From the NCBI GenBank assembly GCA_018830125.1, contig JAHJSY010000002.1:1-51398 (forward strand): a DNA stretch of 51,398 bases, written 5' to 3'. The stretch comes from Patescibacteria group bacterium. GTDB lineage: Bacteria > Patescibacteriota > Minisyncoccia > Minisyncoccales > GWA2-38-27. Positions 780 through 48,772 of the stretch are shown here, one piece after another (positions within the stretch are counted from its first letter, which is position 1; each line of letters opens with the position of its first letter). A program made the translations under genes and the position numbers. The notes beneath the pieces are model-generated. The model was not told where the DNA came from, searched no databases, and worked only from the letters and a program-made list of their open reading frames with translations.

Positions 780-1468
780 TGGATAGGGAATATAGAAAGG
801 TTGTTATATCTATTATAGTTATAGTTATTATTATCGTTGGTATTGGTATATTTTGGAAGTATAAACAAGAAAGCAAATTTAGTCCACTAGAGAGGGATCT
901 TATTTCTTTTTTAGAAAAGCATCCTTTATCGGAAGGGGATCAAGCTAAGCTTAATAATGCTATAAATATCTTAAGAGAAAAACCAAAAGATGTTTCAGCG
1001 TTAATTACTATCGCAGAAATTAGGCAGAAAGTCAAAGATGTAGATGGATCAATAGAGTTTTACTTAAAAGCATTAGAAGTCCAACCAACAAATGTGGTTG
1101 CTCTAAATAATTTAGCAGACCTATATGACCATCAAAAGAAGGAATACGAGAAGTCGGCAGAAATGTATTTAAGATCAATAGAAAATACTCCAGAACAGAT
1201 TAGCGCATATCAATCATTGATGTATATTTATCAACATCGTCTTCCAGAAAAGTATCCAGACATGGAACAAATTTTATTAACGGCTATTGAGAAAAATACT
1301 GATATATCCGAATATGCTCCAGTTGATTTTTATTCAATGCTTGGTGATTTTTATGCCAATGTGGATGAAATAAATAAGGCAATAAAATATTACGAAATAG
1401 CTCTGGGGTTGATGCCAGGTGACGAATCTGTTAAAATAAAGATAGAAAGACTTAAAGAATTAAAATGA
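779..1468 (+). CDS. Membrane-anchored TPR-like repeat protein (tandem paralog 2)
   Basis: Same architecture as 174..779, with long near-identical DNA stretches. Its start overlaps the upstream stop (TAATG). Confidence 0.8.
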   Translation: MDREYRKVVISIIVIVIIIVGIGIFWKYKQESKFSPLERDLISFLEKHPLSEGDQAKLNNAINILREKPKDVSALITIAEIRQKVKDVDGSIEFYLKALEVQPTNVVALNNLADLYDHQKKEYEKSAEMYLRSIENTPEQISAYQSLMYIYQHRLPEKYPDMEQILLTAIEKNTDISEYAPVDFYSMLGDFYANVDEINKAIKYYEIALGLMPGDESVKIKIERLKELK

Positions 1469-29828: not shown

Positions 29829-30709
29829 ACAACATAGATGAAAAGAAAACAAATGCTCTAATATGGTACATGGGCGTAAGACCTTGCCTAAGATTAAGTT
29901 TAGAGCTTTTGTATAAGAATTTTAATAATAAATATAAATATCCAGTTTTGGTCACGACTTTTGGTAAACAATACAGTAAGAGATTCATTAAAAAAATACA
30001 TCAAGAGATAGACCCAAATATTAAATTTATAGAATTACCCAAACCAAAAGTGCCGGCTCACATTAAAGAGAAAGAATTATTTTATAATAGAAAAGAGATA
30101 GAATATGTCAGAAAGTCATTTCCGAAATCAAGGATAGGGTTTCTTTATGTCGATCAATTTGTTGCTGGACTAGCTATGCAATATCCAGAAATAAGAAAAT
30201 ATGATTATGTTTTGAAAATGGATGACGATCATTTCTTTATTAAAGAATTTGGTTTTGATATCTTTAAATTTATGGAAGATAATGGAAAGCTGTTTGGTGC
30301 TTTCGCTATGGAGAAAGCTGACTCTAAAAGACAAAGAGATTGTCAGATTGGATTGAGAGATTTGGCTAAAGAATATATTAAAGAAAATAATATCCAATTT
30401 CAAGGTGAATGGGATAGTCTGGTTAGTCAGGATCCAACAATTTGGGGAATGGACATTTTTAAAAACAAAAATTGGGAGAATTGGTGGAATTATGTTGATC
30501 AATCAGGAGGTATTTATAAATATAGATGGGGGGACTTAGAAATACATGCTCTGTATATGAGAATGTATTATCCAGATTCAGTTTGGCATGATTTTGATTA
30601 TTACAATAAAGAAGTAGTAAAACATAGTGGCTACGGAATGGTTCATTACAGTTGGACGTTAAAAAAATTACAATCTTTAAAAAGATTTCTAAACGAAGAA
30701 ATTATTTAA
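29825..30709 (+). CDS. Hypothetical protein, possible GT-A-like glycosyltransferase (faint GT15/Kre2-like pattern)
   Basis: The coding region is convincing (ATGA overlap with rmlB; an alternative ATG lies at 29810). The function call rests only on a YDYVLKMDDDHFF acidic motif and the genomic context. Confidence 0.4.
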   Translation: MNNIDEKKTNALIWYMGVRPCLRLSLELLYKNFNNKYKYPVLVTTFGKQYSKRFIKKIHQEIDPNIKFIELPKPKVPAHIKEKELFYNRKEIEYVRKSFPKSRIGFLYVDQFVAGLAMQYPEIRKYDYVLKMDDDHFFIKEFGFDIFKFMEDNGKLFGAFAMEKADSKRQRDCQIGLRDLAKEYIKENNIQFQGEWDSLVSQDPTIWGMDIFKNKNWENWWNYVDQSGGIYKYRWGDLEIHALYMRMYYPDSVWHDFDYYNKEVVKHSGYGMVHYSWTLKKLQSLKRFLNEEII

Positions 30710-30746
30710 AATAATTAAAAAGAGAGTCAATCTAATATCGTAGCTA

Positions 30747-30774
30747 TTGACAAATTCTGTGGGTTTGCTATGCT
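30747..30774 (+). promoter_or_regulatory. Promoter-like element TTGACA-16-(TGc)TATGCT
   Basis: TTGACA at 30747-52. Extended -10 TGCTATGCT at 30766-74. Confidence 0.45.
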
Positions 30775-30780
30775 GTAGGT

Positions 30781-30939
30781 GTAGCACATTTAAGAGAGAT
30801 CAGAGGTCCGAGGGAAAAATATGACTTTGACCCACCAGGAAAAAGCCTAGAGCCGGGCTCTCATGAAACGGCCCAACACCTGACCTTCTGATCACTTATC
30901 GAAAGCCGCAATTGTTTACACAACATTTGCGGCTTTTTT
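30781..30939 (+). ncRNA. Candidate ~160-nt structured RNA or leader of unknown class
   Basis: Lies between the promoter above and an intrinsic terminator. Long-range pairing gatcagaggtc (30799-30809) with gaccttctgatc (30882-30893). No ORF longer than 9 codons. Shares short motifs (gaggtccga, ccaacacctg) with the GC-rich island repeat. Confidence 0.35.
30904..30939 (+). terminator. Intrinsic terminator
   Basis: Stem agccgcaa / ttgcggct followed by tttttt. Confidence 0.7.
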
Positions 30940-30961
30940 CTTGATTTTAATTTTATTGTAC

Positions 30962-30990
30962 TTGACAATGCTAGATGGAGAGAATATAAA
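30962..30990 (+). promoter_or_regulatory. Cassette promoter P1 (TTGACA-17-TATAAA)
   Basis: Consensus -35, a 17-nt spacer, and a near-consensus -10, 65 nt upstream of ATG 31056. Confidence 0.55.
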
Positions 30991-31055
30991 GAAGTATTGT
31001 TTTGAATCAGTTCTTTTAAAGGTAAAGATAATTAGAGAAGAAAGGAAGGTGTCTT

Positions 31056-31811
31056 ATGTGTCGGAAAGCGTTAATGGTTATTTTGTTAGGAGTTTCTATC
31101 GCTCATACCTCAGAAGGAGAAGAAAGAATCAGGCTACTTTTAGACATACCTCTCGATCTGCAGTTCAGCACACCTTCTGTAAAAGAAGTTAGCAACGTGT
31201 TTGAATCTATCAGAAATGTGCCGATTCACGAAGATGACCCATGGGGGACACCCGGTGTAATTGCTAAAAATAGAGGGGATGCTCCCTGGATAGTCGAACT
31301 TAGATTTTTAAATCTTGGAGTAGAGGTAGATTTGGACCCAACCGTCTGGAAGAACTATTTTGACCTTAGTTGGAATATTGGCCATTGGCTTATGATTGGA
31401 TCCGATGCTCAAGAGCGTAATTACACAAATGCTCCCGGAACAGAACAGCGAGGATATGGAGCAGCTCTTACTTTTTGGACTCCTGGATATAGTCGTATTA
31501 TACCCGGCTTCAGAACAGAATTTCATTTTGAAAACAATTGGTTTGTTGGCGCTGGTTTTCGGAAGTACGACCTAGAGATTATTACAGGATATGATCGTTA
31601 CGACAAACTAAAACACAGAAGTCACACGGACATTGGCGAAATCTTTGAAACAAGCGTTTTTGTAGGGTGGAATAGAGTAGAAGATGATAGTACGGCGGGT
31701 TTCCGTGTGGGCGCTAATTTCAATAGCTATAATGGAAAAGATGGATACCGCGCCATTGATGTTGAGACGAATAAAGTTTCCTTTTTTCTATCACTCTGCC
31801 TTAGTTATTAA
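31056..31811 (+). CDS. Secreted beta-strand-rich protein of unknown function (OMP-beta-barrel-like pattern)
   Basis: SD aaggaaggtg. Signal-like MCRKALMVILLGVSIAHTSEG. Alternating hydrophobic/aromatic strands (RTEFHFENNWFVGAGFRKYDLEIITGY, AGFRVGANFNSY). C-terminal ...FFLSLCLSY ends in an aromatic residue. Confidence 0.6.
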   Translation: MCRKALMVILLGVSIAHTSEGEERIRLLLDIPLDLQFSTPSVKEVSNVFESIRNVPIHEDDPWGTPGVIAKNRGDAPWIVELRFLNLGVEVDLDPTVWKNYFDLSWNIGHWLMIGSDAQERNYTNAPGTEQRGYGAALTFWTPGYSRIIPGFRTEFHFENNWFVGAGFRKYDLEIITGYDRYDKLKHRSHTDIGEIFETSVFVGWNRVEDDSTAGFRVGANFNSYNGKDGYRAIDVETNKVSFFLSLCLSY

Positions 31812-31850
31812 ACGGCCCGAGACCCGATCTTTCGGATCTCTTGCCTCAAA

Positions 31851-31886
31851 GTCGTGACTGCTTTTCACAGCATCCACGACTTTTTT
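31851..31886 (+). terminator. Intrinsic terminator
   Basis: gtcgtg...cacgac stem followed by tttttt. Confidence 0.6.
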
Positions 31887-31887
31887 A

Positions 31888-31915
31888 TTGATTTTAAATT
31901 TAGAAAGAGTAAGGT
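31888..31915 (+). promoter_or_regulatory. Cassette promoter P2 (TTGATT-16-TAAGGT)
   Basis: The 41-nt block 31888-31928 is identical to 32915-32955 (P4). Confidence 0.5.
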
Positions 31916-31976
31916 GACAATAAAGTAAACATTGTTATTTAAAAATAGAAGATAGAATTTTTTAAGGAAATAGAAA

Positions 31977-32450
31977 ATGAAAGCTACAGTTCTTTCCACG
32001 GATTTTGTTTTAGAGATTAGCGGTGTAAGATACCGTCATCATCCAAATGGCGGAGGTCTTGTAGCGGAGACGGCCAAAGTAGCTAAAACTGCCTATGTGG
32101 GACCGTTTGCTTGGGTCCATGGCCATGTTAGGGTTCTTGATAACGTCAAGATTCTTGATTGTGCTCAAATCTTTGGCCATGTTCAACTCTCTGGCAACGT
32201 TAGGGTCTTCGATCACGCTCAGGTTTCTGGATATGCTGAGGTCTCTGGTAGTGCTTGGATCTATGGTTACGCTCAGGTCTCTAACCATGCCAAAATCTCT
32301 AGTTATGTCCGAATTTCTGGTCATGCTCGGATCCTTGACTTTGTTCAGGTCGCTGGCGATGTCCAGGTATTTGGTCATCCTCGGCTTTATGGCGGCAATC
32401 TCAAGGTCTCAGGCCAGACTCAAATCTTCGGTAAGGTTTTTCTTTCTTAA
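31977..32450 (+). CDS. Hexapeptide-repeat (left-handed beta-helix-like, YdcK-like) protein
   Basis: 17 uninterrupted hexads (GHVRVL DNVKIL DCAQIF GHVQLS GNVRVF DHAQVS GYAEVS ...) from residue 49 to 150. The DNA shows 18-nt periodicity. Confidence 0.8.
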   Translation: MKATVLSTDFVLEISGVRYRHHPNGGGLVAETAKVAKTAYVGPFAWVHGHVRVLDNVKILDCAQIFGHVQLSGNVRVFDHAQVSGYAEVSGSAWIYGYAQVSNHAKISSYVRISGHARILDFVQVAGDVQVFGHPRLYGGNLKVSGQTQIFGKVFLS

Positions 32451-32465
32451 CACAAAGTTTCCTAT

Positions 32466-32495
32466 AAGCTCTGCCATCATGGCAGAGCTTTTTTT
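32466..32495 (+). terminator. Intrinsic terminator
   Basis: Perfect 10-bp stem aagctctgcc / ggcagagctt, 5-nt loop, then a T-run. Confidence 0.8.
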
Positions 32496-32512
32496 GTGCA
32501 TCCATCGTCGGG

Positions 32513-32532
32513 CCTCTACGCAACTCTTCTTC
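32513..32532 (+). repeat. Partial copy (3-prime end only) of the GC-rich island repeat
   Basis: cctctacgcaactcttcttc is identical to the last 20 nt of the copies at 33396-33555 and 34161-34320, and sits in the same position just upstream of a TTGATT -35. Confidence 0.7.
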
Positions 32533-32543
32533 GTTATTTCAAC

Positions 32544-32572
32544 TTGATTTTCAAGTAAAATAAGGGTATTCT
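32544..32572 (+). promoter_or_regulatory. Cassette promoter P3 (TTGATT-17-TATTCT)
   Basis: Same cTTGATTTT context as the other cassette promoters. Confidence 0.45.
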
Positions 32573-32615
32573 GAAATAACGTTCATTTTTGTTCATTAAT
32601 GTAAAAGGAGACAAG

Positions 32616-32810
32616 ATGGCTCAAGAAAAAGAAGGAAAAGATATCACAGCTAGAACTGTAGGTGACTCGTTAGGCAGTTCTTATTGGGATAGAACAGACC
32701 GCATACAGAGTATGGGTCAAACGCCACTATGTTGTGGAAAGCCGATGGTTGCCGAAGATGATCATGGCAGATTCAGCTGTTCCACGTGTGGTGGTCGTAG
32801 CTCTTTTTAA
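32616..32810 (+). CDS. Small (64 aa) zinc-ribbon-like protein
   Basis: SD aaggag 5 nt before ATG 32616; the track start at 32589 is a TTG extension. Cys pairs PLCCGKPM ... FSCSTCGG. Confidence 0.6.
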   Translation: MAQEKEGKDITARTVGDSLGSSYWDRTDRIQSMGQTPLCCGKPMVAEDDHGRFSCSTCGGRSSF

Positions 32811-32833
32811 ATAATCCAAGTAGAAATTATATC

Positions 32834-32875
32834 CCCGCCAATAGGAAGCTTTCCTATTAGGCGGGTTTTTATTTT
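32834..32875 (+). terminator. Intrinsic terminator
   Basis: 14-bp interrupted stem cccgcc-aataggaa / ttcctatt-a-ggcggg followed by tttttattttt. Confidence 0.8.
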
Positions 32876-32914
32876 TATGGCACTCATGGACTATTTTTAC
32901 TTGTGCTTTTTTCC

Positions 32915-32942
32915 TTGATTTTAAATTTAGAAAGAGTAAGGT
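32915..32942 (+). promoter_or_regulatory. Cassette promoter P4 (TTGATT-16-TAAGGT)
   Basis: Identical 41-nt block to P2. Its 5-prime UTR carries a 12-nt tandem duplication (acaataaagtaa / acaataaagtga). Confidence 0.5.
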
Positions 32943-32963
32943 GACAATAAAGTAACAATAAAG

Positions 32964-32976
32964 TGAACATTGTTCA
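32964..32976. promoter_or_regulatory. 13-nt perfect palindrome TGAACA-T-TGTTCA in the P4 leader (candidate operator)
   Basis: Located between the -10 and the SD (aaggagg at 32981-87). A degenerate version (taaacattgttat) occupies the same position in the P2 leader. Confidence 0.3.
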
Positions 32977-32992
32977 TTGAAAGGAGGTTATT

Positions 32993-33343
32993 ATGCCCGG
33001 AACCAACATCTCAACACTTTGTGTGGCTTGTTGTTCAGAAGAAAATCCAGTAGACATGGCAAATAATTTCGAATGTCGAAGATGTAACGGATCAATGCAT
33101 CATGACTGTTGGAAAGCTAACGGTAAGGATCTCTGCCCCAACTGTCTTAGAAGAATAACGATAATCGAAATTTTAAGCGAAGTTCATGTGCGTAGCTCTA
33201 ACGACCCGGAAGTATTGTGCGCAGGCACTTTCCATGATTTTAATTACGACCAGAAAAACCTGTCAGAACTCAGAAAGATCCAAGCGCTTCAGAATGAGCT
33301 TTTCATGGCTTGCAGAAAAACAAAGGAAGGATGGGCGTTATAA
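32993..33343 (+). CDS. Small (116 aa) protein with a C4HC3 cross-brace-like zinc finger (PHD/RING-CH-like spacing)
   Basis: SD aaggaggt. C10-x2-C13-x14-C28-x2-C31-x4-H36-x2-C39-x8-C48-x2-C51. Confidence 0.65.
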   Translation: MPGTNISTLCVACCSEENPVDMANNFECRRCNGSMHHDCWKANGKDLCPNCLRRITIIEILSEVHVRSSNDPEVLCAGTFHDFNYDQKNLSELRKIQALQNELFMACRKTKEGWAL

Positions 33344-33371
33344 TTTAATGCCCTAAAGTAGAAAAAACTAT

Positions 33372-33400
33372 AGGTCGCGACAAATGTCAGCGACCTTTTT
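33372..33400 (+). terminator. Intrinsic terminator
   Basis: ggtcgc(gac aaat gtc a)gcgacc followed by tttttt. Confidence 0.8.
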
Positions 33401-33555
33401 TATTTCCCAAAAATCACCGCAATCATACATGTCCAACACCTGGTGTTGGACAAGGTGTTGGACAACGAAAGGTCGTTCGTAGAGAGGCCCGCCCACCGTC
33501 GGAGGTCCGCACCTCGGATAGCGATCCGAGGTCGGACCTCTACGCAACTCTTCTT
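33396..33555 (+). repeat. GC-rich structured intergenic repeat, copy A (160 nt)
   Basis: Identical to 34161-34320 except at 2 nt in a hairpin loop. Contains three GGTGTTGGACA sites and the nested hairpin gaggtccg-ca-cctcggat-agcg-atccgagg-t-cggacctc. Confidence 0.9.
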
Positions 33556-33568
33556 CTTTATTTTTAAC

Positions 33569-33597
33569 TTGCTTTTGAGCTCAAACAGGAGTAAATT
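33569..33597 (+). promoter_or_regulatory. Cassette promoter P5 (TTGCTT-17-TAAATT), apparently without its own ORF
   Basis: Same module as P6. Followed only by a 3-codon ORF and then a second promoter. Confidence 0.4.
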
Positions 33598-33680
33598 AGA
33601 CATAAAGACAATGAAAATTTAATTTGTAAAATATGGATTAAGAAAAATCGCTCCTGACCCCATTTCCACTTGATTCAGTC

Positions 33681-33709
33681 TTGACAGTGCTTTTTGATTA
33701 TTATATGAT
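33681..33709 (+). promoter_or_regulatory. Promoter TTGACA-17-TATGAT
   Basis: Consensus -35 and a good -10, 56 nt upstream of ATG 33765. Confidence 0.55.
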
Positions 33710-33764
33710 GACATTGTGGTTTTCTATTTCAGTAAATCAATTAGATCTTTTTATGAGGTGTACT

Positions 33765-34100
33765 ATGTTTACACAACCGAGCACAGAACCGATCCTTGGA
33801 GGAACAGCGATAGTGAACAGTGGCTTCGGTAATCGTTGCGTTATTTGCGGACACCACTTCGATGAATGTGGTATTTGCAACTTCGGACATTATCAGGGTA
33901 AAACTTATTACTATCCACCGGCCGAAAAGCCATCCTCAAGGAATCCTGTCGTTGCACAGGAGAAAAGCGAAGACAAAGTTGTTTGTCAGGTGTTTAGCAG
34001 TTGTCGTTGTACTATCTGCGGAAGCTATTTCGGAGATGGTGATGATATCTGCGCTAACGGCCACGAAATTGGCCAAGCATACACCAAAATAGCGAGTTAA
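33765..34100 (+). CDS. Small (111 aa) protein with two copies of a CxxCG-x2-F...C-x2-GH zinc-knuckle motif
   Basis: SD gaggtg 4 nt before ATG 33765; the track start at 33681 is the promoter's own TTG. Motifs CVICGHHFDECGICNFGH and CTICGSYFGDGDDICANGH. Confidence 0.65.
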   Translation: MFTQPSTEPILGGTAIVNSGFGNRCVICGHHFDECGICNFGHYQGKTYYYPPAEKPSSRNPVVAQEKSEDKVVCQVFSSCRCTICGSYFGDGDDICANGHEIGQAYTKIAS

Positions 34101-34136
34101 CATACTCGCCATACAAGCTTTTCAACCAAACCCAAC

Positions 34137-34165
34137 GGGCGTCAAATTAAACTGACGCCCTTTTT
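34137..34165 (+). terminator. Intrinsic terminator
   Basis: gggcgtca / tgacgccc 8-bp stem followed by ttttt. Confidence 0.8.
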
Positions 34166-34320
34166 ATTTCCCAAAAATCACCGCAATCATACATGTCCAA
34201 CACCTGGTGTTGGACAAGGTGTTGGACAACGAAAGGTCGTTCGTAGAGAGGCCCGCCCACCGTCGGAGGTCCGCACCTCGGATCGCTATCCGAGGTCGGA
34301 CCTCTACGCAACTCTTCTTC
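34161..34320 (+). repeat. GC-rich structured intergenic repeat, copy B (160 nt)
   Basis: See copy A. The loop is cgct (34284-87) instead of agcg (33519-22). Confidence 0.9.
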
Positions 34321-34329
34321 GTCATCATC

Positions 34330-34352
34330 GTCTGGACGTCCGACGTCCAGAC
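34330..34352. repeat. Perfect 9-bp hairpin gtctggacg-tccga-cgtccagac
   Basis: Part of a ~110-nt GC-rich extension present only after copy B. Confidence 0.6.
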
Positions 34353-34372
34353 TTCGACCTTGAGGAGGAGTA

Positions 34373-34399
34373 AATGAAGGAGGCTCGACCTCATTCATT
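34373..34399 (+). repeat. 27-nt copy (1 mismatch) of the terminator hairpin found at 48742-48768
   Basis: aatgaaggaggctcgacctcAttcatt vs aatgaaggaggctcgacctcCttcatt. Confidence 0.8.
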
Positions 34400-34435
34400 A
34401 CGACGGGAAAGGCCGTTCCTTGAGGAGTGATTTTC

Positions 34436-34464
34436 TTGATTTTTAAGCAAAAAGAGAGTAAATT
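34436..34464 (+). promoter_or_regulatory. Cassette promoter P6 (TTGATT-17-TAAATT)
   Basis: Same module as P5 (gagTAAATTaga). Confidence 0.5.
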
Positions 34465-34512
34465 AGAAGTATGAAGAAATGTTTTGAAAAATTTAATAAT
34501 AAAGATTAGTTC

Positions 34513-34908
34513 ATGGAAGATTATTTAATAAAGTTTATTGAATGGACAAAATTAAAAATTAGAATCCATATCAAACCCGAAGATAAGATTTATTTTCACG
34601 AACGTGAAGTTTGGTGGGCAAGTTTAGGGGCAAATATTGGTTTTGAACAAGACGGAAAAAATATTAAATTTGAAAGACCCATATTAATTTTGAGAAAATT
34701 TGGAGGAGAAATGCTTTGGGCGTTACCTATGACGACTAAAGAAAAAACTGGTAGATTTTATTACCAGTTTGAGCATAAGGGTCAAAAGTATTCAGTTATT
34801 TTATCTCAATTAAGATTGATAAGTAGCAAGAGGCTGTTGCGTAAAATTAGAACTTTTCCAGAAGACGATTTCAAAAAAGTAAGGAATAGAATAAGAAGAT
34901 TGTTATAA
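34513..34908 (+). CDS. PemK/MazF-family toxin-like protein (mRNA interferase fold)
   Basis: REVWWASLGANIGFEQDGKNIKFERPILIL matches the MazF/PemK core (G-x-hW.v.lg...G.EQ.G..RPvLvl). AT-rich and without an SD, unlike the other island genes. No antitoxin ORF is visible. Confidence 0.7.
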   Translation: MEDYLIKFIEWTKLKIRIHIKPEDKIYFHEREVWWASLGANIGFEQDGKNIKFERPILILRKFGGEMLWALPMTTKEKTGRFYYQFEHKGQKYSVILSQLRLISSKRLLRKIRTFPEDDFKKVRNRIRRLL

Positions 34909-34966
34909 AAAACGATCCCCGTATTTTCAAAGAAAATGCGGGGTCTCGGAGCCCGAAGGCCAATAT
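34908..34966 (-). ncRNA. Candidate ~60-nt small RNA convergent with the toxin gene
   Basis: Minus-strand promoter at 34973-35001. On the minus strand the transcript would contain gcc-UUCG-ggc, and it ends in the hairpin ccccgcattttc-ttt-gaaaatacgggg followed by atcgtttttt. Confidence 0.35.
34917..34943 (-). terminator. Hairpin with a T-run only on the minus strand (terminator for the candidate sRNA; may also stop the toxin transcript)
   Basis: 12-bp stem with one G-T pair. A-run on the plus-strand 5-prime side. Confidence 0.55.
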
Positions 34967-34972
34967 GTTTGT

Positions 34973-35001
34973 ATATTAGTATAATAGCAGACGCTTGTCA
35001 A
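34973..35001 (-). promoter_or_regulatory. Minus-strand promoter TTGACA-17-TAATAT
   Basis: Reverse complement of 34996-35001 is TTGACA. Reverse complement of 34973-34978 is TAATAT. The spacer is exactly 17 nt. Confidence 0.55.
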
Positions 35002-35011
35002 GTGGAAAAAA

Positions 35012-35131
35012 TCAACGCAATCCTTCACAAGCAATTCCATCGGCGTCACGATCTAAATCGTAGACGTCGTTTTTTATTCCCCCATAACTCTCAGTAAATA
35101 GGGGACGCATCACTTTTAAACGGGATTTTAG
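35012..35131 (-). pseudogene. Remnant of an Excalibur (extracellular Ca-binding, DxDxDGxxCE) domain gene
   Basis: The open frame reads ...MRPLFTESYGGIKNDVYDLDRDADGIACEGLR*. DLDRDADGIACE matches the Excalibur signature. Only ~39 codons are open, and the N-terminal part of the domain is missing. Confidence 0.4.
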
Positions 35132-35165
35132 TCATTTTATGAAAATCACTGCTTAAGGAATGACG

Positions 35166-35250
35166 GAAGAGTTGCGTAGAGGTCCGACCTCGCCCGCTCT
35201 GGGCGGGCACCTTTAGAGGTGCGGACCTCCGACGGTGACGGTGATTTTCG
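35166..35250 (-). repeat. Divergent, inverted copy (C) of the GC-rich island repeat
   Basis: The reverse complement reads aaaatcaccg-tcaccgtcggaggtccgcacct...aggtcggacctctacgcaactcttc. The flanks match copies A/B. The central hairpin is replaced, and the GGTGTTGGACA module is absent. Confidence 0.7.
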
Positions 35251-35259
35251 ACGATGACT

Positions 35260-35295
35260 AAATACGAAGGTTGAACCTTCGTATTTTGTTTTTTG
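35260..35295 (+). terminator. Intrinsic terminator-like hairpin at the right edge of the island
   Basis: aaatacgaaggt / accttcgtattt 12-bp stem followed by tgttttttg. Confidence 0.6.
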
Positions 35296-35310
35296 GGTTC
35301 ATCTGGCATA

Positions 35311-35574
35311 ATGAAATATATGAAAAGAATATTTTATATTATAAGTTTTAGTTTTCTAGGATTGTTGTTACAGATTTTAGTTCATGCTTTGATTGAGATT
35401 TTGTATATAGGGTTACTTGTGGGGGATTATAATAAATATGCCCTAGGTTTTTCTTGGGGTCAGTTGGTATTGATTCATCACATAGGAACCGTTATCCTCG
35501 TTATACTTGGTCTTTTGTTTGGTTTTTGGCAAGGAAAATATTGGTGGAAAAGATTGTACGAAGATAAAAAGTAA
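35311..35574 (+). CDS. Small hydrophobic membrane protein (2-3 TM helices)
   Basis: IFYIISFSFLGLLLQILVHALIEILYIGLLV ... VLIHHIGTVILVILGLLFGFW. ATG 35320 is an alternative, possibly leaderless, start. Confidence 0.55.
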   Translation: MKYMKRIFYIISFSFLGLLLQILVHALIEILYIGLLVGDYNKYALGFSWGQLVLIHHIGTVILVILGLLFGFWQGKYWWKRLYEDKK

Positions 35575-35607
35575 ATAGGGTCAGACACTGACAGCGAAGC
35601 GGGAATT

Positions 35608-35629
35608 AAGGAGCCAGGCTCCTTTTTTT
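35608..35629 (+). terminator. Intrinsic terminator
   Basis: aaggag-ccagg-ctcctt followed by ttttttt. Confidence 0.65.
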
Positions 35630-35662
35630 GCTTTGAATTTTTGGTTTAATGTGATAGAATCA

Positions 35663-35671
35663 TGCTATAAT
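35663..35671 (+). promoter_or_regulatory. Extended -10 (TGcTATAAT), 8 nt upstream of ATG 35680
   Basis: tgctataat at 35663-71. This would give a leaderless or near-leaderless mRNA. Confidence 0.45.
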
Positions 35672-35679
35672 AAATATAA

Positions 35680-37797
35680 ATGAAAATATTATTACAAACA
35701 ATTGAAAAAAGATTTAAATTAATTGCTGTTTTTCTTTTAGCGTTGATTTTGATCGCTTTTTTTGATAAGGCGCTGGCGATAGGACTTATGCTTCTTATTG
35801 TCTTAACAGGTCTTACCTTCTGGATTATTAAAAAATTGGGATTAAGTCGTAAATATCTTGTGATGCTTTTGTTGATTGCTTTGGCGATTCAATTATCAGC
35901 TACTTTGTTTATACATTATGCTAATTTTCAGCCTCTTGGCATTACCGGAGATGGAGACTTTAATAGTTATCATGAAGAAGCGGTTGAAATGTCTCTTCAT
36001 TTTAAAGAAGGAAATTTTTCTATGGAAGGGTTTAAACTGTCCCATTATTATACAATTGTCATAGGAGTTGTATATACACTTACCTTGCCCGAAATGATTG
36101 TCGGTCAATTATTTGGAGTTTGGTTGTCAGTTTTAGCAATTATTTTTGTTTATTTAATAGTTATTGAATTAGGTGGTTCGGAGAAATGGGCCTTTTTCAC
36201 TGGATTAATTACTATTGCTTATCCAAGCTTTCTTTTTTATAGCAGTTTGCTTTTAAAGGATACTTTGGTTATTCCTTTTGCATTATTAACAATGCTACTA
36301 ACACTGAAGTTAATCAAAAGTTTTTCTTGGAGGAACTTTTTATTTTTTGTTGTCTCTTTAAGCATCGCGTTTCATTTTCGTTATTATATCGGCTATGCTT
36401 TGCTTTTTGCTTTTCTTTTCTCATGGTTGTTATTGGCAAGATTGTCCTCGATTAAAAGAAAAATTGTTTATTCAATTATTATAATTATTATTTTAGGGTT
36501 TTTACCAATGGTTTTAAGGGGTCATGGATTCTACGGAATAAATATCTTTAGAGATAGTTTTACTTCTAAAAACGTTAATTTTCTTCAAGAAAGAGCGTAT
36601 AATCCTTCATTTCCTGTAATACTCACAGGGCTTGCAGGGTCCGCAGAGTTGGCAGAGTTCGCAGAGCCAATAGAAATAAATGCCTCCATGCCCTTAATTA
36701 ATAATCGTTTCAGGGGGTTTGCATCTACATGGGATAAAGAAGAAGTAAATCCTCAGAGGGAACCTTTAAGGTTTTTAACAAATCAATTAAAATATTTTGG
36801 TTATGTTCTGCTAGGACCTTTTCCTTGGCAAATGAGGTATTCGCGTCATCTCTTTGCTTTGTTTGAACTAATACCCTGGTATATCTTATTATTTTTTATT
36901 TGCAGGGGAGTATGGGAATCTATCAAATCTCGTAATAAATTAATTCTTCCCTTGATTATTTTCTCTATCCTCGCCTTAGGCGTCATGGCCTTATTTTTAA
37001 ATAATTTCGGGATTATTACCAGGATTAGAATACCAATTTTTATGACCCTTTTGTGTTTAATTCCCCTGGGCTTCAAAAGCAAGGTGCCGACTCTTACGGC
37101 CGTGGCTATTGAGATTAATTCGGCTTGTAATAGGAGATGTGCTTGGTGTCCTAACCACACCAATCATAGAGAAGTTAAATTTTTAGACGAGAAAGTTTTT
37201 TTTAAAGCAATAGATGAGCTTAGAGCAATGAATTTTAGGGGAAAAATAACCTTTAATTTATATAACGAACCATTACTTGATGAGCGACTTTTAGGGTTTA
37301 TAAGCTATGTAAAGAAAAATATTCCTTTAGCAAGTCAATATTTAAATACCAATGGAGATTTATTAAATTTGGATATTTGGGAAAAGCTTAGAAAGGCCGG
37401 CTTGGATTATGCAAACATTTCCCAATACGACGGTAAAATAAATGAGAACATAGAAAAGATTTTAAAAGGTATCGATTTAAAAGAAAAAAAACATTTCCGA
37501 GCTTTTGTTTTTGATCAAGATTCAATTTGCAATAGAGGTGGTTTGCTAAAATCAAAAAGAGAAATTAAGGTGCCTCTTAAAAAATATTGCAGTCAGCCCT
37601 TTTATCAATTATGCATAGACTATAAGGGAAAAGTCGTTCTATGTTGTAACGACTACCATGGCGCCGTTGTAATGGGAGACGTGCGTAATAACTCAATAGA
37701 AGAATTATGGGGAAATGGAAAATTTAGACATTATAGAAAAGAGCTTCTAAAAAGAAACAGATCTAATTTAAAATTATGCGATGTGTGCGATTCTTGA
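35680..37797 (+). CDS. Fusion protein: polytopic GT-C-like (ArnT/PMT-like) membrane domain + C-terminal radical SAM domain with a SPASM/twitch-like Cys cluster
   Basis: About 465 aa with 10 or more TM helices and an early acidic loop (GDGDFNSYHEEA). Then IEINSACNRRCAWCPNH (Cx3Cx2C, Cys483/487/490), LYNEPLLD, LNTNGDLL, and C-terminal CSQPFYQLCIDYKGKVVLCCNDY...LCDVCDS. Confidence 0.8.
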   Translation: MKILLQTIEKRFKLIAVFLLALILIAFFDKALAIGLMLLIVLTGLTFWIIKKLGLSRKYLVMLLLIALAIQLSATLFIHYANFQPLGITGDGDFNSYHEEAVEMSLHFKEGNFSMEGFKLSHYYTIVIGVVYTLTLPEMIVGQLFGVWLSVLAIIFVYLIVIELGGSEKWAFFTGLITIAYPSFLFYSSLLLKDTLVIPFALLTMLLTLKLIKSFSWRNFLFFVVSLSIAFHFRYYIGYALLFAFLFSWLLLARLSSIKRKIVYSIIIIIILGFLPMVLRGHGFYGINIFRDSFTSKNVNFLQERAYNPSFPVILTGLAGSAELAEFAEPIEINASMPLINNRFRGFASTWDKEEVNPQREPLRFLTNQLKYFGYVLLGPFPWQMRYSRHLFALFELIPWYILLFFICRGVWESIKSRNKLILPLIIFSILALGVMALFLNNFGIITRIRIPIFMTLLCLIPLGFKSKVPTLTAVAIEINSACNRRCAWCPNHTNHREVKFLDEKVFFKAIDELRAMNFRGKITFNLYNEPLLDERLLGFISYVKKNIPLASQYLNTNGDLLNLDIWEKLRKAGLDYANISQYDGKINENIEKILKGIDLKEKKHFRAFVFDQDSICNRGGLLKSKREIKVPLKKYCSQPFYQLCIDYKGKVVLCCNDYHGAVVMGDVRNNSIEELWGNGKFRHYRKELLKRNRSNLKLCDVCDS

Positions 37798-47589: not shown

Positions 47590-48746
47590 GAAACTCTAAA
47601 ATAAAAGTTTGTCGTGTTGCTAATACAGACATAGCTGTAAAGTTTTTATTACTCAATCAATTAAAGTTTTTAAAAAACAGGGGCTATGATGTTTCTGTGG
47701 TTTGTTCTGATGGAGGATTAATAGATGATATAAAAAAGAATGGGATAAAGATAAAGATTGTCAATTTCAATAGAGGCCTTAATATCTTTAGCCATATAGT
47801 TTCTTTGTTTAAGTTATATTTTTATTTTAAAAAAGAGAAGTTTGATATTGTTCATACTCATACTCCAGTTCCAGGTCTTTTAGGGCAATTGGCAGCCAAG
47901 ATGGCTGGTGTCCCTATTATTATAAATACTATTCACGGATTTTATTTTGCCGATAGCTCCAATTTCCTAAAGAGAAATTTCTATGCTTTCATAGAAAAAC
48001 TTTCGGCTAAATTTTCTGATTCAATTCTTTCTGTTAGTCAGGGAATTATTGATACAGCTATTGAAGAAAAAATTTGCCGAGAAGACCTATTGCATTATTT
48101 AGGAAGAGATATTGATATTGATAGATTTAACCCAGATAAGTTTTCTACAGATTTTATTCTTCAAAAAAAGAAAGAGCTTGGAATTAATCCAGACAAGAGA
48201 GTTATTGGCATTGTTGGTCGCTTGGTTAAAGAGAAAGGATACCTAGAATTGTTTCAAGCTTTTAAAGATGTTCTTAAAAGGTTCCCTAATACATCGCTTT
48301 TAATCATTGGACCAGAAGAATCTAAAAAGAAAGACAAGATAAACTCAAATCTTATTAAAATACTTGCTACCAAGAAGAACATTTTCTTTTTAGGTCAAAG
48401 GACAGATGTTGATGAACTTTATGCTCTTATGGATATTTTTGTTTTACCATCATATAGAGAAGGTATCGGAGCATCTATTTTAGAAGCATCAGCAATGGGT
48501 AAACCAGTAATATCTACTAATATTCCTGGTTGTCGCGAAGCTGTTGACGAGAAGAAGACGGGGATTTTAGTTCCAGCTAAAGATTCGGAAAAGCTTGCCG
48601 AAGCAATAATTTATTTATTTGAAAATCCAGAAAAAGCCAAACAGTTTGGGCAAGCAGGAAGAGAAAAGATAAAAAGAGAATTTTCTGGGAACATCGTTCT
48701 TGATAGAATAGAAAAAGAATACACTCGCCTAATAGAAGAAAAATGA
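47586..48746 (+). CDS. Glycosyltransferase GT4
   Basis: PSYREGIGASILEASAMGKPVISTNIPGCREAV. ATGA overlap at 47586. Confidence 0.9.
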   Translation: MRNSKIKVCRVANTDIAVKFLLLNQLKFLKNRGYDVSVVCSDGGLIDDIKKNGIKIKIVNFNRGLNIFSHIVSLFKLYFYFKKEKFDIVHTHTPVPGLLGQLAAKMAGVPIIINTIHGFYFADSSNFLKRNFYAFIEKLSAKFSDSILSVSQGIIDTAIEEKICREDLLHYLGRDIDIDRFNPDKFSTDFILQKKKELGINPDKRVIGIVGRLVKEKGYLELFQAFKDVLKRFPNTSLLIIGPEESKKKDKINSNLIKILATKKNIFFLGQRTDVDELYALMDIFVLPSYREGIGASILEASAMGKPVISTNIPGCREAVDEKKTGILVPAKDSEKLAEAIIYLFENPEKAKQFGQAGREKIKREFSGNIVLDRIEKEYTRLIEEK

Positions 48747-48772
48747 AGGAGGCTCGACCTCCTTCATTTTTT
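48743..48772 (+). terminator. Intrinsic terminator ending the glycan operon
   Basis: tgaaggagg-ctcga-cctccttca followed by tttttt. The stop codon is inside the stem. Confidence 0.85.

Follow-up and report, generated by a model that had tools for sequence, protein, structure and literature searches.

The window analysed here, a 51,398-nt stretch of DNA from a Patescibacteria group bacterium, contains several copies of a GC-rich, highly structured intergenic repeat, and the question is what unit is being repeated and to which class of elements it belongs. The genomes of CPR bacteria (Patescibacteria) are very small, and the usual view is that they contain little repeated or mobile DNA. A preliminary description of the locus proposed a 160-nt unit in at least four copies and offered four identities for it: a REP/MITE-like element, a recombination or cassette-junction site, a structured RNA and an upstream regulatory module.

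Direct comparison of positions 33397–33556 (copy A) and 34161–34320 (copy B) revealed identity at 158 of 160 positions, as originally reported, with differences only at 33520 (A/C) and 33523 (G/T). The copies belong to longer composites on the + strand (33394–33561 and 34158–34325), each 168 nt long and 97% identical to the other; that of A comprises a window-specific 5′ part, a core shared with the rest of the family and the start of a promoter spacer. The core of A (33496–33553, + strand; covariance model score 94.1 bits; DNA folding energy −20.5 kcal/mol, z = −6.1) consists, in order, of a CCGTCG tag, GAGGTCCG, a bulged C, ACCTC, a GGAT-AGCG-ATCC insert, GAGGT, CGGACCTC and the tail TACGCAACTCTTC. 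The core of B (34260–34317, + strand) is the same except for its loop, CGCT, the reverse complement of AGCG. An inverted copy with an exchanged centre had also been claimed. It was located at 35157–35254 on the − strand (copy C, 64.4 bits), where a terminator (35286–35260) precedes it; it has the arms and tail of A and B and a different insert of 24 nt, TAAAGGTGCCCGCCCAGAGCGGGC, referred to as type 2. What had been taken for a 20-nt 3′ fragment at 32513–32532 proved to be a solo 3′ half, CGTCGGGCCTCTACGCAACTCTTC (32497–32538, + strand; 26.8 bits), fused to a promoter module. A search with the 21-mer CGGACCTCTACGCAACTCTTC, allowing up to three mismatches, found four sites in the window, at 32509, 33533 and 34297 on the + strand and at 35166–35186 on the − strand, with 0.00 matches expected from 100 shuffles. 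The core covariance model, run over the 51 kb, returned the same four sites and no others. Thus, the count of at least four copies stands.

The 160-nt unit did not hold up as the repeat: it is a window-specific composite, and the heritable unit is the shorter core of ~60–75 nt. The 5′ ~95 nt of the 160-mer, including a triple GGTGTTGGACA, have no counterpart at any other locus compared. This part contains a module outside the family (33430–33464 and also 34194–34228, + strand; z = −4.7), which combines a TGTCCAACACC/GGTGTTGGACA palindrome with a third, direct GGTGTTGGACA; the palindrome had 0 matches in viral contigs. Reading of the sequence also revealed, at 33475–33491 in A and 34239–34255 in B (+ strand), a degenerate inverted partner of the tail and arm, GTTCGTAGAGAGGCCCG (compare the reverse complement of CGGACCTCTACGCAAC), which gives these copies a head-to-head, dimer-like arrangement. 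The lack of terminal inverted repeats, asserted earlier, is thus not entirely accurate for A and B, the only copies to carry the partner, in which GTTCGTAGAGAGGCCCG faces ...CTCTACGCAAC.

The anatomy of the core was tabulated for 24 distinct full copies. The unit is about 45–75 nt long, depending on the insert, and has the order (CGTCG)n – GAGGTCCG – bulged C/T – ACCTC – insert – GAGGT – CGGACCTC – TACGCAACTCTTC. It contains two nearly identical 13–14-bp dyads, GAGGTCCG(Y)ACCTC and GAGGTCGGACCTC, and its stem of 13–17 bp (8+5 to 8+9), with one bulged pyrimidine, surrounds a replaceable centre. The bulge is a C in 15 of the 24 copies and a T in eight, and is absent from one. Inserts of 12, 14, 21, 24, 34 and 35 nt were found, and these are self-complementary themselves. 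Tags are present at both sides, CGTC(G) repeats at one and CTAC-GCAACTCTTC at the other. The CGTCG(A) flank occurs in 21/24 copies, with CGTCG reiterated one to eight times, and CTAC follows the 3′ arm in 22/24; on the other strand the latter reads as a GTAG that abuts the stem with a 1-nt overlap.

The repeat folds stably as RNA (z = −5.3 and −5.2 for the two strands), and its core does so as DNA (z = −6.1 and −6.4). The nested helices described earlier, gaggtccg/cggacctc and cctcggat/atccgagg, are present in the minimum-energy fold of both strands; the proposed outer cgtagag/ctctacg helix had to be dropped, since CTC would have to pair in both it and the inner helix, and the RNA minimum-energy structure does not contain it. 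Arm sequence is invariant across all 24 copies: the outer eight stem pairs never vary, 13 of 17 pairs are fixed and compensatory change is seen at only two. As a consequence of this invariance, the covariation check suggested for collected copies revealed almost none. Such conservation of sequence is far above the needs of a hairpin, and the conserved feature of the core is its sequence rather than its structure. The differences between A and B amount to an exact inversion of the 4-nt loop, which makes a hairpin event at the DNA level look likely; both loop orientations recur in the related loci L012 and L014. The overall likeness of A and B probably reflects recent local copying or conversion of the 168-nt composite, followed by a single loop inversion.

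The repeat is a family that extends beyond local duplication. With the covariance model, 29 sites were identified over non-redundant loci, the window included. The 25 sites outside the window, found in about 14 low-GC contigs from one MAG labelled Candidatus Saccharibacteria and three metagenome projects, provide the copies in related genomes that the preliminary description had proposed to look for. A 20/21-mer query representing the tail had four exact sites on three contigs of one CPR MAG and matched 15 genuine low-GC metagenome contigs; one further match, on a contig of 65% GC, was taken as chance. The tail query gave 0 matches in viral contigs, and 14 viral-contig matches to the 16-nt 5′ arm were dismissed as chance, since they lie in 58–72% GC sequence with the rest of the element missing. 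For about 16 of the 25 sites outside the window, the end of the locus or contig is no more than ~900 nt away, so the copy numbers (four in the 51-kb window, all in one island; four exact-tail matches in one MAG) are lower bounds. Locus L012 carries five copies within 3.9 kb, all in the same orientation. The solo-half form is also present in L007, L018, L001 and L002, the first two sharing upstream sequence and diverging exactly after CTCTTC.

All sites are intergenic and lie mainly downstream of ORFs. Roughly two-thirds of the 29 have a terminator-like hairpin with a T-run within ~100 nt upstream. The element was originally said to start at this T-run; copies A and B do so, after two unrelated terminator hairpins, but the solo half starts ~10 nt past it. 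The reported end of the element 12–13 nt before the next −35 box is correct, the distances being 13 nt to TTGCTT (33569) for A and 12 nt to TTGATT (32544) for the solo half. The promoter module fused to the tail of A (33569–33635, + strand) comprises TTGCTT-17-TAAATT, a 5′UTR and an ATG, and is 84% identical to the leaders of hsdM in L002 and of a Type III mod gene in L007; here it continues as ATG GAT TAA, which means that the gene has been lost. The module after the solo half (TTGATT-17-TATTCT; 32544–32572, + strand) drives ORF 32616–32810, and L001, L007 and L008 show the same fusion of tail and promoter. An upstream regulatory module is thus a suitable name for a minority of copies, five of about 29 sites having a fused promoter module, but not for the rest.

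The flanks that follow CTCTTC are of a few recurrent types, marked by the promoter module, by an SD-rich module or by TATAAT-GGGGTCAGGAGC. Around the cores of L002, L010, L012 and the window a set of modules recurs, consisting of GTG...CAC terminator hairpins, the SD-rich hairpin, GTGATTTTCAyAAAATGACTAAAAyCCCG, CGCTCCTGACCCCATT and the promoter/5′UTR module. Palindromes and a limited set of motifs, variable in order and number, form mosaics of the BIME/NIME type. The terminator at 48742–48769, which resembles part of the hairpin at 34372–34399, looks like an ordinary one.

All four copies of the window lie inside an island of about 4.6 kb (30710–35680) with 39–42% GC, compared to ~31% for the genome. 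The island splits a glycan-synthesis operon and is made up of small genes, each transcribed on its own. Orthologous glycan loci (L020–L023), found via the GT15 protein at 75% identity and used as "no island" controls, lack both island and element; they are too distant to provide a clean empty site. Analysis of island proteins with PADLOC and NCBIfam revealed only a beta-solenoid resemblance, an exact-protein look-up returned no record for the window's PemK and 705-aa proteins (the closest PemK homologue is 77% identical), and no tRNA or tmRNA was found in a scan for these genes.

The PemK/MazF cassette of the island (34359–35011, + strand) is 96% identical to that of L001. It contains an SD-rich hairpin module (34359–34430), a promoter (34436–34464) and the ORF (34513–34908), with a bidirectional terminator and a convergent − strand promoter (35001–34973) at its 3′ side. 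In L001 the cassette has flanks unlike those in the window, yet family cores are present there too. The boundaries of the shared block are 10–40 nt off the cores on the left and 75–155 nt off on the right, so this cassette lends no support to precise site-specific recombination at the core. The idea of a cassette junction holds as a description, with cores lying between independently transcribed small cassettes. Copies adjoin toxin-antitoxin and restriction-modification genes, and the neighbours include PemK, HsdM, Type III Mod, D12 methylase, MvaI/BcnI with an HTH protein, DUF6036, SocA/Panacea, NYN and T5orf172.

We conclude that the repeat probably represents a family of REP-like intergenic palindromes that has not been described before, is restricted to a lineage of low-GC CPR bacteria (Patescibacteria) and resides within BIME/NIME-like mosaics. 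A tagged, bulged palindrome that is intergenic, clustered in mosaics and lineage-specific makes the REP-like option the best supported of the four. The core would act as DNA, as a selfish and/or recombinogenic palindrome. Across the copies, its arms are kept as sequence, deletion between the two dyads yields solo halves, the flanking context switches immediately outside the core, and copies build up in accessory islands between self-contained cassettes with their own promoters and terminators; the centre looks to have been swapped or inverted via hairpin-mediated events. Such cassettes encode toxin-antitoxin systems, restriction-modification systems and orphan small proteins. Spread might be due to a trans-acting single-strand (HUH/RAYT-type) enzyme, or to gene conversion and homologous recombination after DNA uptake, and where the hairpin is transcribed, by read-through or in 5′UTRs, secondary effects on transcripts may follow. 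In scans of the window's island and ~140 kb of related loci, 50 ORFs examined one by one yielded no RAYT/Y1 or other transposase, recombinase or integrase, and for a batch of 95 ORFs there was no transposase or recombinase among the 25 most frequent of 117 families. The loci compared include no clean pair of filled and empty sites, and mobility of the core is therefore putative. The MITE half of the first option is not supported: target-site duplications are lacking and the unit has neither a fixed length nor clear bounds, the left edge being a variable CGTCG tract and the right edge ...CTCTTC, with inverted partners, degenerate at that, in A and B only.

If the core were instead a cis-acting RNA hairpin of untranslated regions, selected for function in transcripts, it could serve as a 3′-end protector, a back-up terminator behind leaky terminators, a 5′UTR stabiliser or an RNase III site. 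Its highly stable fold on both strands and the location of most canonical copies directly behind an intrinsic terminator are consistent with these roles, and REPs stabilise upstream mRNA (PMC3733652). Moreover, in L012, L014 and L017 the reverse complement lies between the TATAAT box and the RBS of downstream genes, and three C·A mismatches in the stem of the canonical strand would be G·U pairs on the other strand; some copies may thus have an RNA role. As an account of the family we consider this reading unlikely: fixed pairs with only two compensatory changes argue against it, the core has no constant orientation with respect to transcription, A and B are placed after a terminator and before the next promoter with no good − strand promoter reading in, and solo halves unable to fold are retained. 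Rfam 15 gave 0 matches at gathering score over the window and, at E ≤ 10 over 30600–35400, only terminator-like chance matches, and the structured-RNA option is not supported on these grounds. Binding of the core by a dimeric protein, such as an HTH regulator of defence or toxin-antitoxin genes, or by nucleoid proteins in an array, would turn it into a regulatory module upstream of the fused promoter and would fit two dyads of strictly conserved sequence separated by a variable spacer. HTH genes are common nearby, and at the five sites where the tail lies 12–13 nt from the −35 box, the conserved promoter module drives hsdM, the Type III mod gene, the T5orf172 gene and small ORFs. However, at about 24 of the 29 sites no promoter follows the tail, the dyads are spaced by 12–35 nt regardless of helical phase, and no single candidate regulator co-occurs with the element, which renders an operator or nucleoid-protein array very unlikely. 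The coding reading, an arginine-rich or acidic small protein encoded across the element, is effectively refuted, in agreement with the earlier statement that the repeat has no convincing coding capacity. Open frames do run across every copy (e.g. 33443–33622 on the + strand, 34147–34398 and 35091–35309 on the − strand), inserts of 12, 21 and 24 nt are multiples of three, and in one frame the A/B loop change is synonymous (ATA GCG vs. ATC GCT). GC-rich sequence, however, has few stop codons through composition alone. Every frame is broken by ±1-nt variants between the conserved halves of intact copies (L002 and L009 lack the bulge, and L012:1429 has an extra C), inserts of 14, 34 and 35 nt preserve no frame, each copy has starts and stops at positions of its own, Pfam gave no match, and the 72-aa ORF across copy C matched only itself among 5.8 billion proteins.

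Integrons are characterised by attC sites with R''/R' boxes (RYYYAAC...GTTRRRY) at the ends, a central spacer left unpaired and extrahelical bases, together with an IntI integrase or a CALIN array of promoterless cassettes. The core would play the part of an attC-like folded site if a dedicated recombinase moved promoter-equipped mini-cassettes. Like attC, it folds as a single strand into a hairpin whose arms are conserved and pair imperfectly, has one extrahelical base and a terminal structure that varies, and separates small cassettes in arrays of uniform orientation (5/5 in L012, 3/4 in the window); flanks diverge right after CTCTTC, and the PemK cassette occurs in two contexts with cores flanking both. 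Unlike attC, it has no RYYYAAC/GTTRRRY boxes at its two ends (in most copies no box at the far end complements ACGCAAC) and no central spacer left unpaired, and the ORF scans described above, over the window's island and about 140 kb of related loci, revealed no integrase. The cassettes, in contrast to those of integrons, have their own promoters and terminators, core orientation relative to genes varies between arrays, and the PemK boundaries coincide with no fixed point in the site. Integron-like site-specific recombination is therefore quite doubtful. A looser version, in which the doubly tagged palindrome is a cassette-exchange recombination site of a CPR clade, working free of RAYT or via an unrecognised single-strand recombinase, is speculative and also unlikely. 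If true, the system would assemble mini-cassettes that express themselves (toxins, restriction-modification, orphan zinc-ribbon proteins) into arrays, and the site would carry portable terminator and promoter modules along with it; organisms with ~1-Mb genomes would then have a functional analogue of the integron that uses a REP-like site. Several other identities were rejected: a DGR template/variable repeat (the differing positions are not adenines, and a reverse transcriptase is lacking), a retron, CRISPR, bridge RNA or omega-RNA (no RT, Cas, IS110 or TnpB gene nearby) and a DNA-uptake sequence (copies are confined to one island).

A REP/BIME-like family is unsurprising in kind. Located at the joints of accessory islands, it would provide a handle on the reshuffling of defence and toxin genes in CPR bacteria, and it would account for some contig breaks in their metagenome assemblies. 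It would also extend tagged REPs to a new phylum, with both published tag types; the host phylum is absent from the REP surveys in the limited literature set consulted.

In comparison with known systems, the core resembles IS200/IS605-derived PATEs and other hairpin-ended elements without TIRs in having no terminal inverted repeats or target duplications, in its subterminal bulged hairpin followed by about 13–16 conserved nt and then divergence of the flank, and in an orientation that is uniform across a replichore-sized stretch. It differs from PATEs in lacking a second distinct end hairpin, in its ragged left boundary, a CGTCG tract of variable length, and in the absence of tnpA/tnpB from the sequence examined. 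With CGTC-tagged REPs (Neisseria dRS3 in NIMEs, Rickettsia RPE-4/6; PMC3733652) it shares a CGTC that abuts the stem, the absence of a known dedicated transposase, and clustering in large mosaic intergenic regions among other repeats and variable gene content, as is the case for CGTC repeats of Neisseria, which lie in mosaic intergenic regions (PMC3733652). Published CGTC REPs have an 8–9-bp stem starting with A/T pairs, a 4–5-nt loop and a CCA-like tail (PMC3733652); the stem of the core starts with GAGG, its loops are of 4–35 nt, its tail is TACGCAACTCTTC, and unlike in those REPs its CGTCG is itself reiterated.

The GTAG super-family is defined by an unpaired GTAG, or a close variant, at the foot of a GC-rich stem-loop, in units of 20–40 bp with stems of 5–13 bp (PMC3733652). 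The gene for the cognate RAYT, an HUH Y1 transposase, is flanked by REPs in an arrangement called a REPtron. The core, at 45–75 nt, is longer than such typical REPs, bears CGTC(G) repeats at its other end, and so has both tag types on one element, which is undescribed in the published scheme (PMC3733652). Its apparent copy number looks low for classical REPs, with copies in accessory islands, compared to hundreds across the chromosome, its CPR host has a genome that is small and AT-rich, and the ORFs scanned gave no RAYT. Double tagging speaks against the REP reading, as may the length, which still falls within what 'complex loop' families span, and the copy number, a lower bound. Tagged REPs also include stems of up to 13 bp with 1-bp bulges and complex self-complementary loops, and they occur as dimers and clusters, mostly downstream of ORFs (PMC3733652). 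The core resembles GTAG-tagged REPs and BIMEs (PMC3733652; PMC2817692) in several respects: an unpaired GTAG lies at the foot of its stem (GTA-GAGGTCCG on the − strand of A and B), the long stem with a 1-nt bulge is like that of the GTAG-24 family, the complex, partly self-complementary loops of variable length are like those of GTAG-3 and GTAG-14, and the core, lineage-specific in sequence and mostly behind ORFs, is found as singletons, inverted dimers and clusters with other short motifs.

Repeat search of the window revealed direct repeats of 168 nt (33394-33561 and 34158-34325, 97% identity) that include the two composite 160-nt copies, A (33397-33556, +) and B (34161-34320, +). Compared base by base, A and B differ only at 33520 (A/C) and 33523 (G/T). 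With up to three mismatches allowed, the 21-mer CGGACCTCTACGCAACTCTTC is found at four sites, 32509 (+), 33533 (+), 34297 (+) and 35166-35186 (-), against 0.00 expected from shuffled sequence; besides A and B these are the fragment, a solo 3' half (32497-32538, +), and inverted copy C (35157-35254, -). A covariance model of the core, a ~60-75-nt GC-rich palindrome common to the window and other genomes, recovered exactly these four window sites. Thus, the repeat reported in the preliminary description is real.

Through the two A/B differences, loop AGCG becomes CGCT, which is exactly its reverse complement, and over the 22-nt ACCTCGGAT-loop-ATCCGAGGT segment A and B are 100% complementary. We estimate the chance of two independent substitutions doing so in an otherwise identical 168-nt repeat to be of the order of 1e-5; inversion of the hairpin tip in one event is much more probable. 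Either template switching across the palindrome or recombination between its arms would produce such an inversion. Both loop orientations were found again in two loci of other genomes, L012 and L014.

In a search of 185,579 species genomes, GGRCCTCTACGCAACTCTTC matched at four sites, all in one MAG (three contigs) that is labelled uncultured Candidatus Saccharibacteria. In metagenomes 16 contigs matched, fifteen of them with window-like GC content (30-37%); the match in L015 (65% GC) was rejected as a chance one, and viral contigs contained no genuine match. The core model found 29 sites across non-redundant loci, window included. Of the 25 sites outside the window, about 16 are no more than ~900 nt from the end of a locus or contig, which fits an assembly-breaking repeat, so the copy numbers are lower bounds. 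When copies were aligned on the tail (the 3' end, ...CTCTTC), the 5' ~95 nt of A and B, including palindrome TGTCCAACACC/GGTGTTGGACA and a third direct copy, had no counterpart in any other locus. The shared core reads (CGTCG)n - GAGGTCCG - Y - ACCTC - insert - GAGGT - CGGACCTC - TACGCAACTCTTC. The 160-mer is a genuine repeat but not the family unit: it is a local composite, copied once recently. Its TGTCCAACACC/GGTGTTGGACA module with third direct GGTGTTGGACA (33430-33464 and 34194-34228) contains GTCCAAC/GTTGGAC, which by eye match the integron R-box consensus; absent from all fetched loci and viral contigs, the module occurs in A and B only and may be a binding site.

In 24 distinct full copies the arms are identical throughout, while the bulge is C in 15, T in 8 and absent from one. 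The insert is 12 nt long in 13 copies (type 1; GGAT-NGCN-ATCC and variants), 24 nt in five (type 2; TAAAGGTGCCCGCYCAGAGCGGGC), 21 nt in three (GAGGAGGAGCTTGCGACGGAA), and 14, 34 and 35 nt in one copy each. CGTCG(A) precedes the stem in 21/24 copies and CTAC follows it in 22/24. The nested helices described earlier are present in minimum-energy folds of both strands (z ~-5.3 as RNA on either strand; ~-6 for the core as DNA). Rfam and covariation, then proposed as checks, did not support a structured RNA: no Rfam family matches, and among 25 distinct model-aligned copies the outer eight pairs are invariant and a compensatory double change is seen in only 2/17 pairs. In type-1 copies 94.5% of cells pair, with a single compensatory pair (A-T to C-G, three copies). 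Invariant pairs are uninformative about structure. Conservation lies in the sequence of two dyads of 13-14 bp, with the centre free. This pattern is a better match to a DNA site recognised by a protein, or to an element that spread recently, than to an RNA under selection for its fold alone. Solo 3' halves, e.g. CGTCGTGAGAGGTCGGACCTCTACGCAAC, were observed in L007, L018, L001, L002 and the window (32497-32538). Since the dyads are also direct repeats of each other, deletion between them would leave such halves as the expected remnant.

The element could alternatively be part of a protein-coding sequence: every copy is crossed by open frames, several inserts have lengths divisible by three, and in one frame the flipped loop encodes the same residues. 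However, between the conserved halves, copies that are intact in every other respect gain or lose 1 nt (bulge absent in L002 and L009, an extra C at L012:1429), and inserts of 14, 34 and 35 nt break any frame. ORFs across the copies contain no Pfam domain, and the 72-aa ORF across copy C matched only itself among 5.8 billion proteins. We conclude that the element is not coding, which bears out the initial view that it lacks convincing coding capacity. Mini-ORFs with an Excalibur-domain C-terminus adjoin cores on the opposite strand at 35022-35120 (-) and L001 ~928-1005 (+); their ends match Pfam PF05901 below threshold (...YDLDRDADGIACEGLR, E = 3.7e-4; MYESYDGDIYDLDRDNDRIACESLK, E = 0.018). 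The A/B 5' module (TTTTTATTTCCCAAAA...) resembles a frameshifted 3' end of a similar ORF (MYDCGDF...).

Every core site is intergenic. On the canonical strand, a terminator-like hairpin with a T-run precedes about two-thirds of them by no more than ~100 nt, and several of these hairpins are a repeated GTG...CAC module with varying stems. The placement relative to terminators and -35 boxes described previously holds for A and B and only roughly for the fragment. Sequences 3' of ...CTCTTC fall into few recurrent classes. The promoter module (TTCGTTATTTTnAnC, then a promoter and conserved 5'UTR) is present at A, the fragment, L001, L007 and L008; it is the promoter of hsdM in L002 and, in L007, of a Type III mod gene. 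The leaders of these two genes share 84% identity with the promoter, 5'UTR and ATG at 33569-33640; the module there (33569-33635) ends ATG GAT TAA, so its gene is lost, and the segment is an expression module stranded by the loss or replacement of a methylase gene. The SD-rich module is CGTCRTYCCTTGAG...GTGATTTTCAyAAAATGACTAAAAyCCCG. The reverse complement of the third module, GCCGTCTTTATAATTTAATSGCTCCTGACCCCATTAT, starts with TATAAT, so that in L012, L014 and L017 the reverse-complemented core falls within the 5'UTR of the genes; core orientation relative to genes is therefore not fixed. The cores of one array share an orientation (5/5 in L012, 3/4 in the window). Upstream sequence is common to L007 and L018, with divergence starting exactly after CTCTTC. 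Genes near cores are enriched for restriction-modification, toxin-antitoxin and nuclease functions, housekeeping genes are also present, and no transposase, integrase or HUH protein is among the neighbouring-gene matches listed.

A short repeat, CGCTCCTGACCCCATT(AT), whose reverse complement starts (T)ATAATGGGGTCAGGAGC, adjoins cores in the window (33648-33668), L008, L012 (four times, once within palindrome AATGGGGTCAGACCCCATT) and L013. The densest mosaic seen, L010 480-1300, contains ~700 bp without an ORF, almost wholly repeat modules: three cores, several GTG...CAC hairpins, and SD-rich and AAAATGACTAAAA modules.

The GC content of the window genome is ~31% and that of the 31-35 kb stretch 39-42%. 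The stretch lies between a GT15 glycosyltransferase gene (ending at 30709) and a PMT/radical-SAM gene (starting at 35680), and encodes a 251-aa orphan, a beta-solenoid protein, three Cys-rich proteins (64, 116 and 111 aa) and a PemK/MazF toxin (Pfam, 5.8e-10). Each small gene has its own TTGATT/TTGCTT-17-TAWWWT promoter-like site and terminator-like hairpin. In the closest orthologous loci fetched (GT15 at 74-75% identity; best named match Candidatus Nealsonbacteria) more glycan genes directly follow the GT gene, and neither an island-like stretch nor the element is present, so the stretch behaves as an accessory island. The beta-solenoid and 116-aa Cys-rich cassettes share a 48-nt promoter/5'UTR (31881-31928 and 32908-32955, 96% identical) with no core in front; expression modules are thus reused independently of the palindrome. 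The Cys-rich (zinc-ribbon or RING-like) orphans occupy consecutive cassettes (32616-32810, 32993-33343, 33765-34100) and match no Pfam, NCBIfam or PADLOC family, the sole signal being a weak Rubicon-homology-domain match of the 116-aa protein. At the island's left edge, 30747-30937 (+) contains a promoter-like TTGACA-16-TATGCT, a predicted ~120-nt multi-stem RNA (closing helix GAUCAGAGGUC/GACCUUCUGAUC, fold z = -4.3) and a strong intrinsic terminator. No Rfam family matches it, and it is missing from every fetched locus; it may be an orphan small RNA or a riboswitch-like leader.

In L001 the PemK cassette (34359-35011) has a 96% identical counterpart in another context, likewise flanked by cores; the cassette's boundaries lie 10-40 nt and 75-155 nt off the cores, outside them. 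A strong minus-strand promoter, TTGACA-17-TAATAT (35001-34973, within 34912-35001), faces the bidirectional terminator that lies 3' of the PemK gene; its predicted product is a convergent RNA of ~55 nt. The promoter is kept together with PemK in L001. Since no antitoxin ORF lies upstream of PemK, this RNA could be its partner.

We conclude that the core is a genuine lineage-restricted REP/BIME-like repeat family. Most likely it is a palindrome that acts as DNA, selfishly and/or by promoting recombination, where accessory cassettes join. Mobilisation by an HUH enzyme, site-specific cassette exchange and a transcript-level role are hypotheses, either rival or subsidiary. No account of REP-like repeats from CPR, Saccharibacteria or Patescibacteria turned up in full-text literature searches. 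The attC, MITE and IS200/IS605-PATE identities each failed on at least one tested feature. According to Di Nocera et al. (PMC3733652), most REPs belong to two super-families with unpaired GTAG or CGTC at the stem foot; stems reach 13 bp with 1-bp bulges, loops are complex, self-complementary and up to 27 bp, and the repeats form dimers and clusters, mainly behind ORFs. RAYT transposases go with GTAG repeats, and CGTC repeats, which have no dedicated transposase, cluster in Neisseria mosaic intergenic regions (PMC3733652). Membership of the core is shown in part only: tag, palindrome and intergenic placement agree, whereas its size is at the upper edge for REPs and it fails the detailed consensus of the CGTC family. 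The two strands of the core read GTA-GAGGTCCG... and CGTCG-GAGGTCCG..., so that both tags are present. Because of these and, as in REP/BIME, a long bulged stem, replaceable loops and mosaic placement, REP/BIME (and NIME) are its closest known kind.
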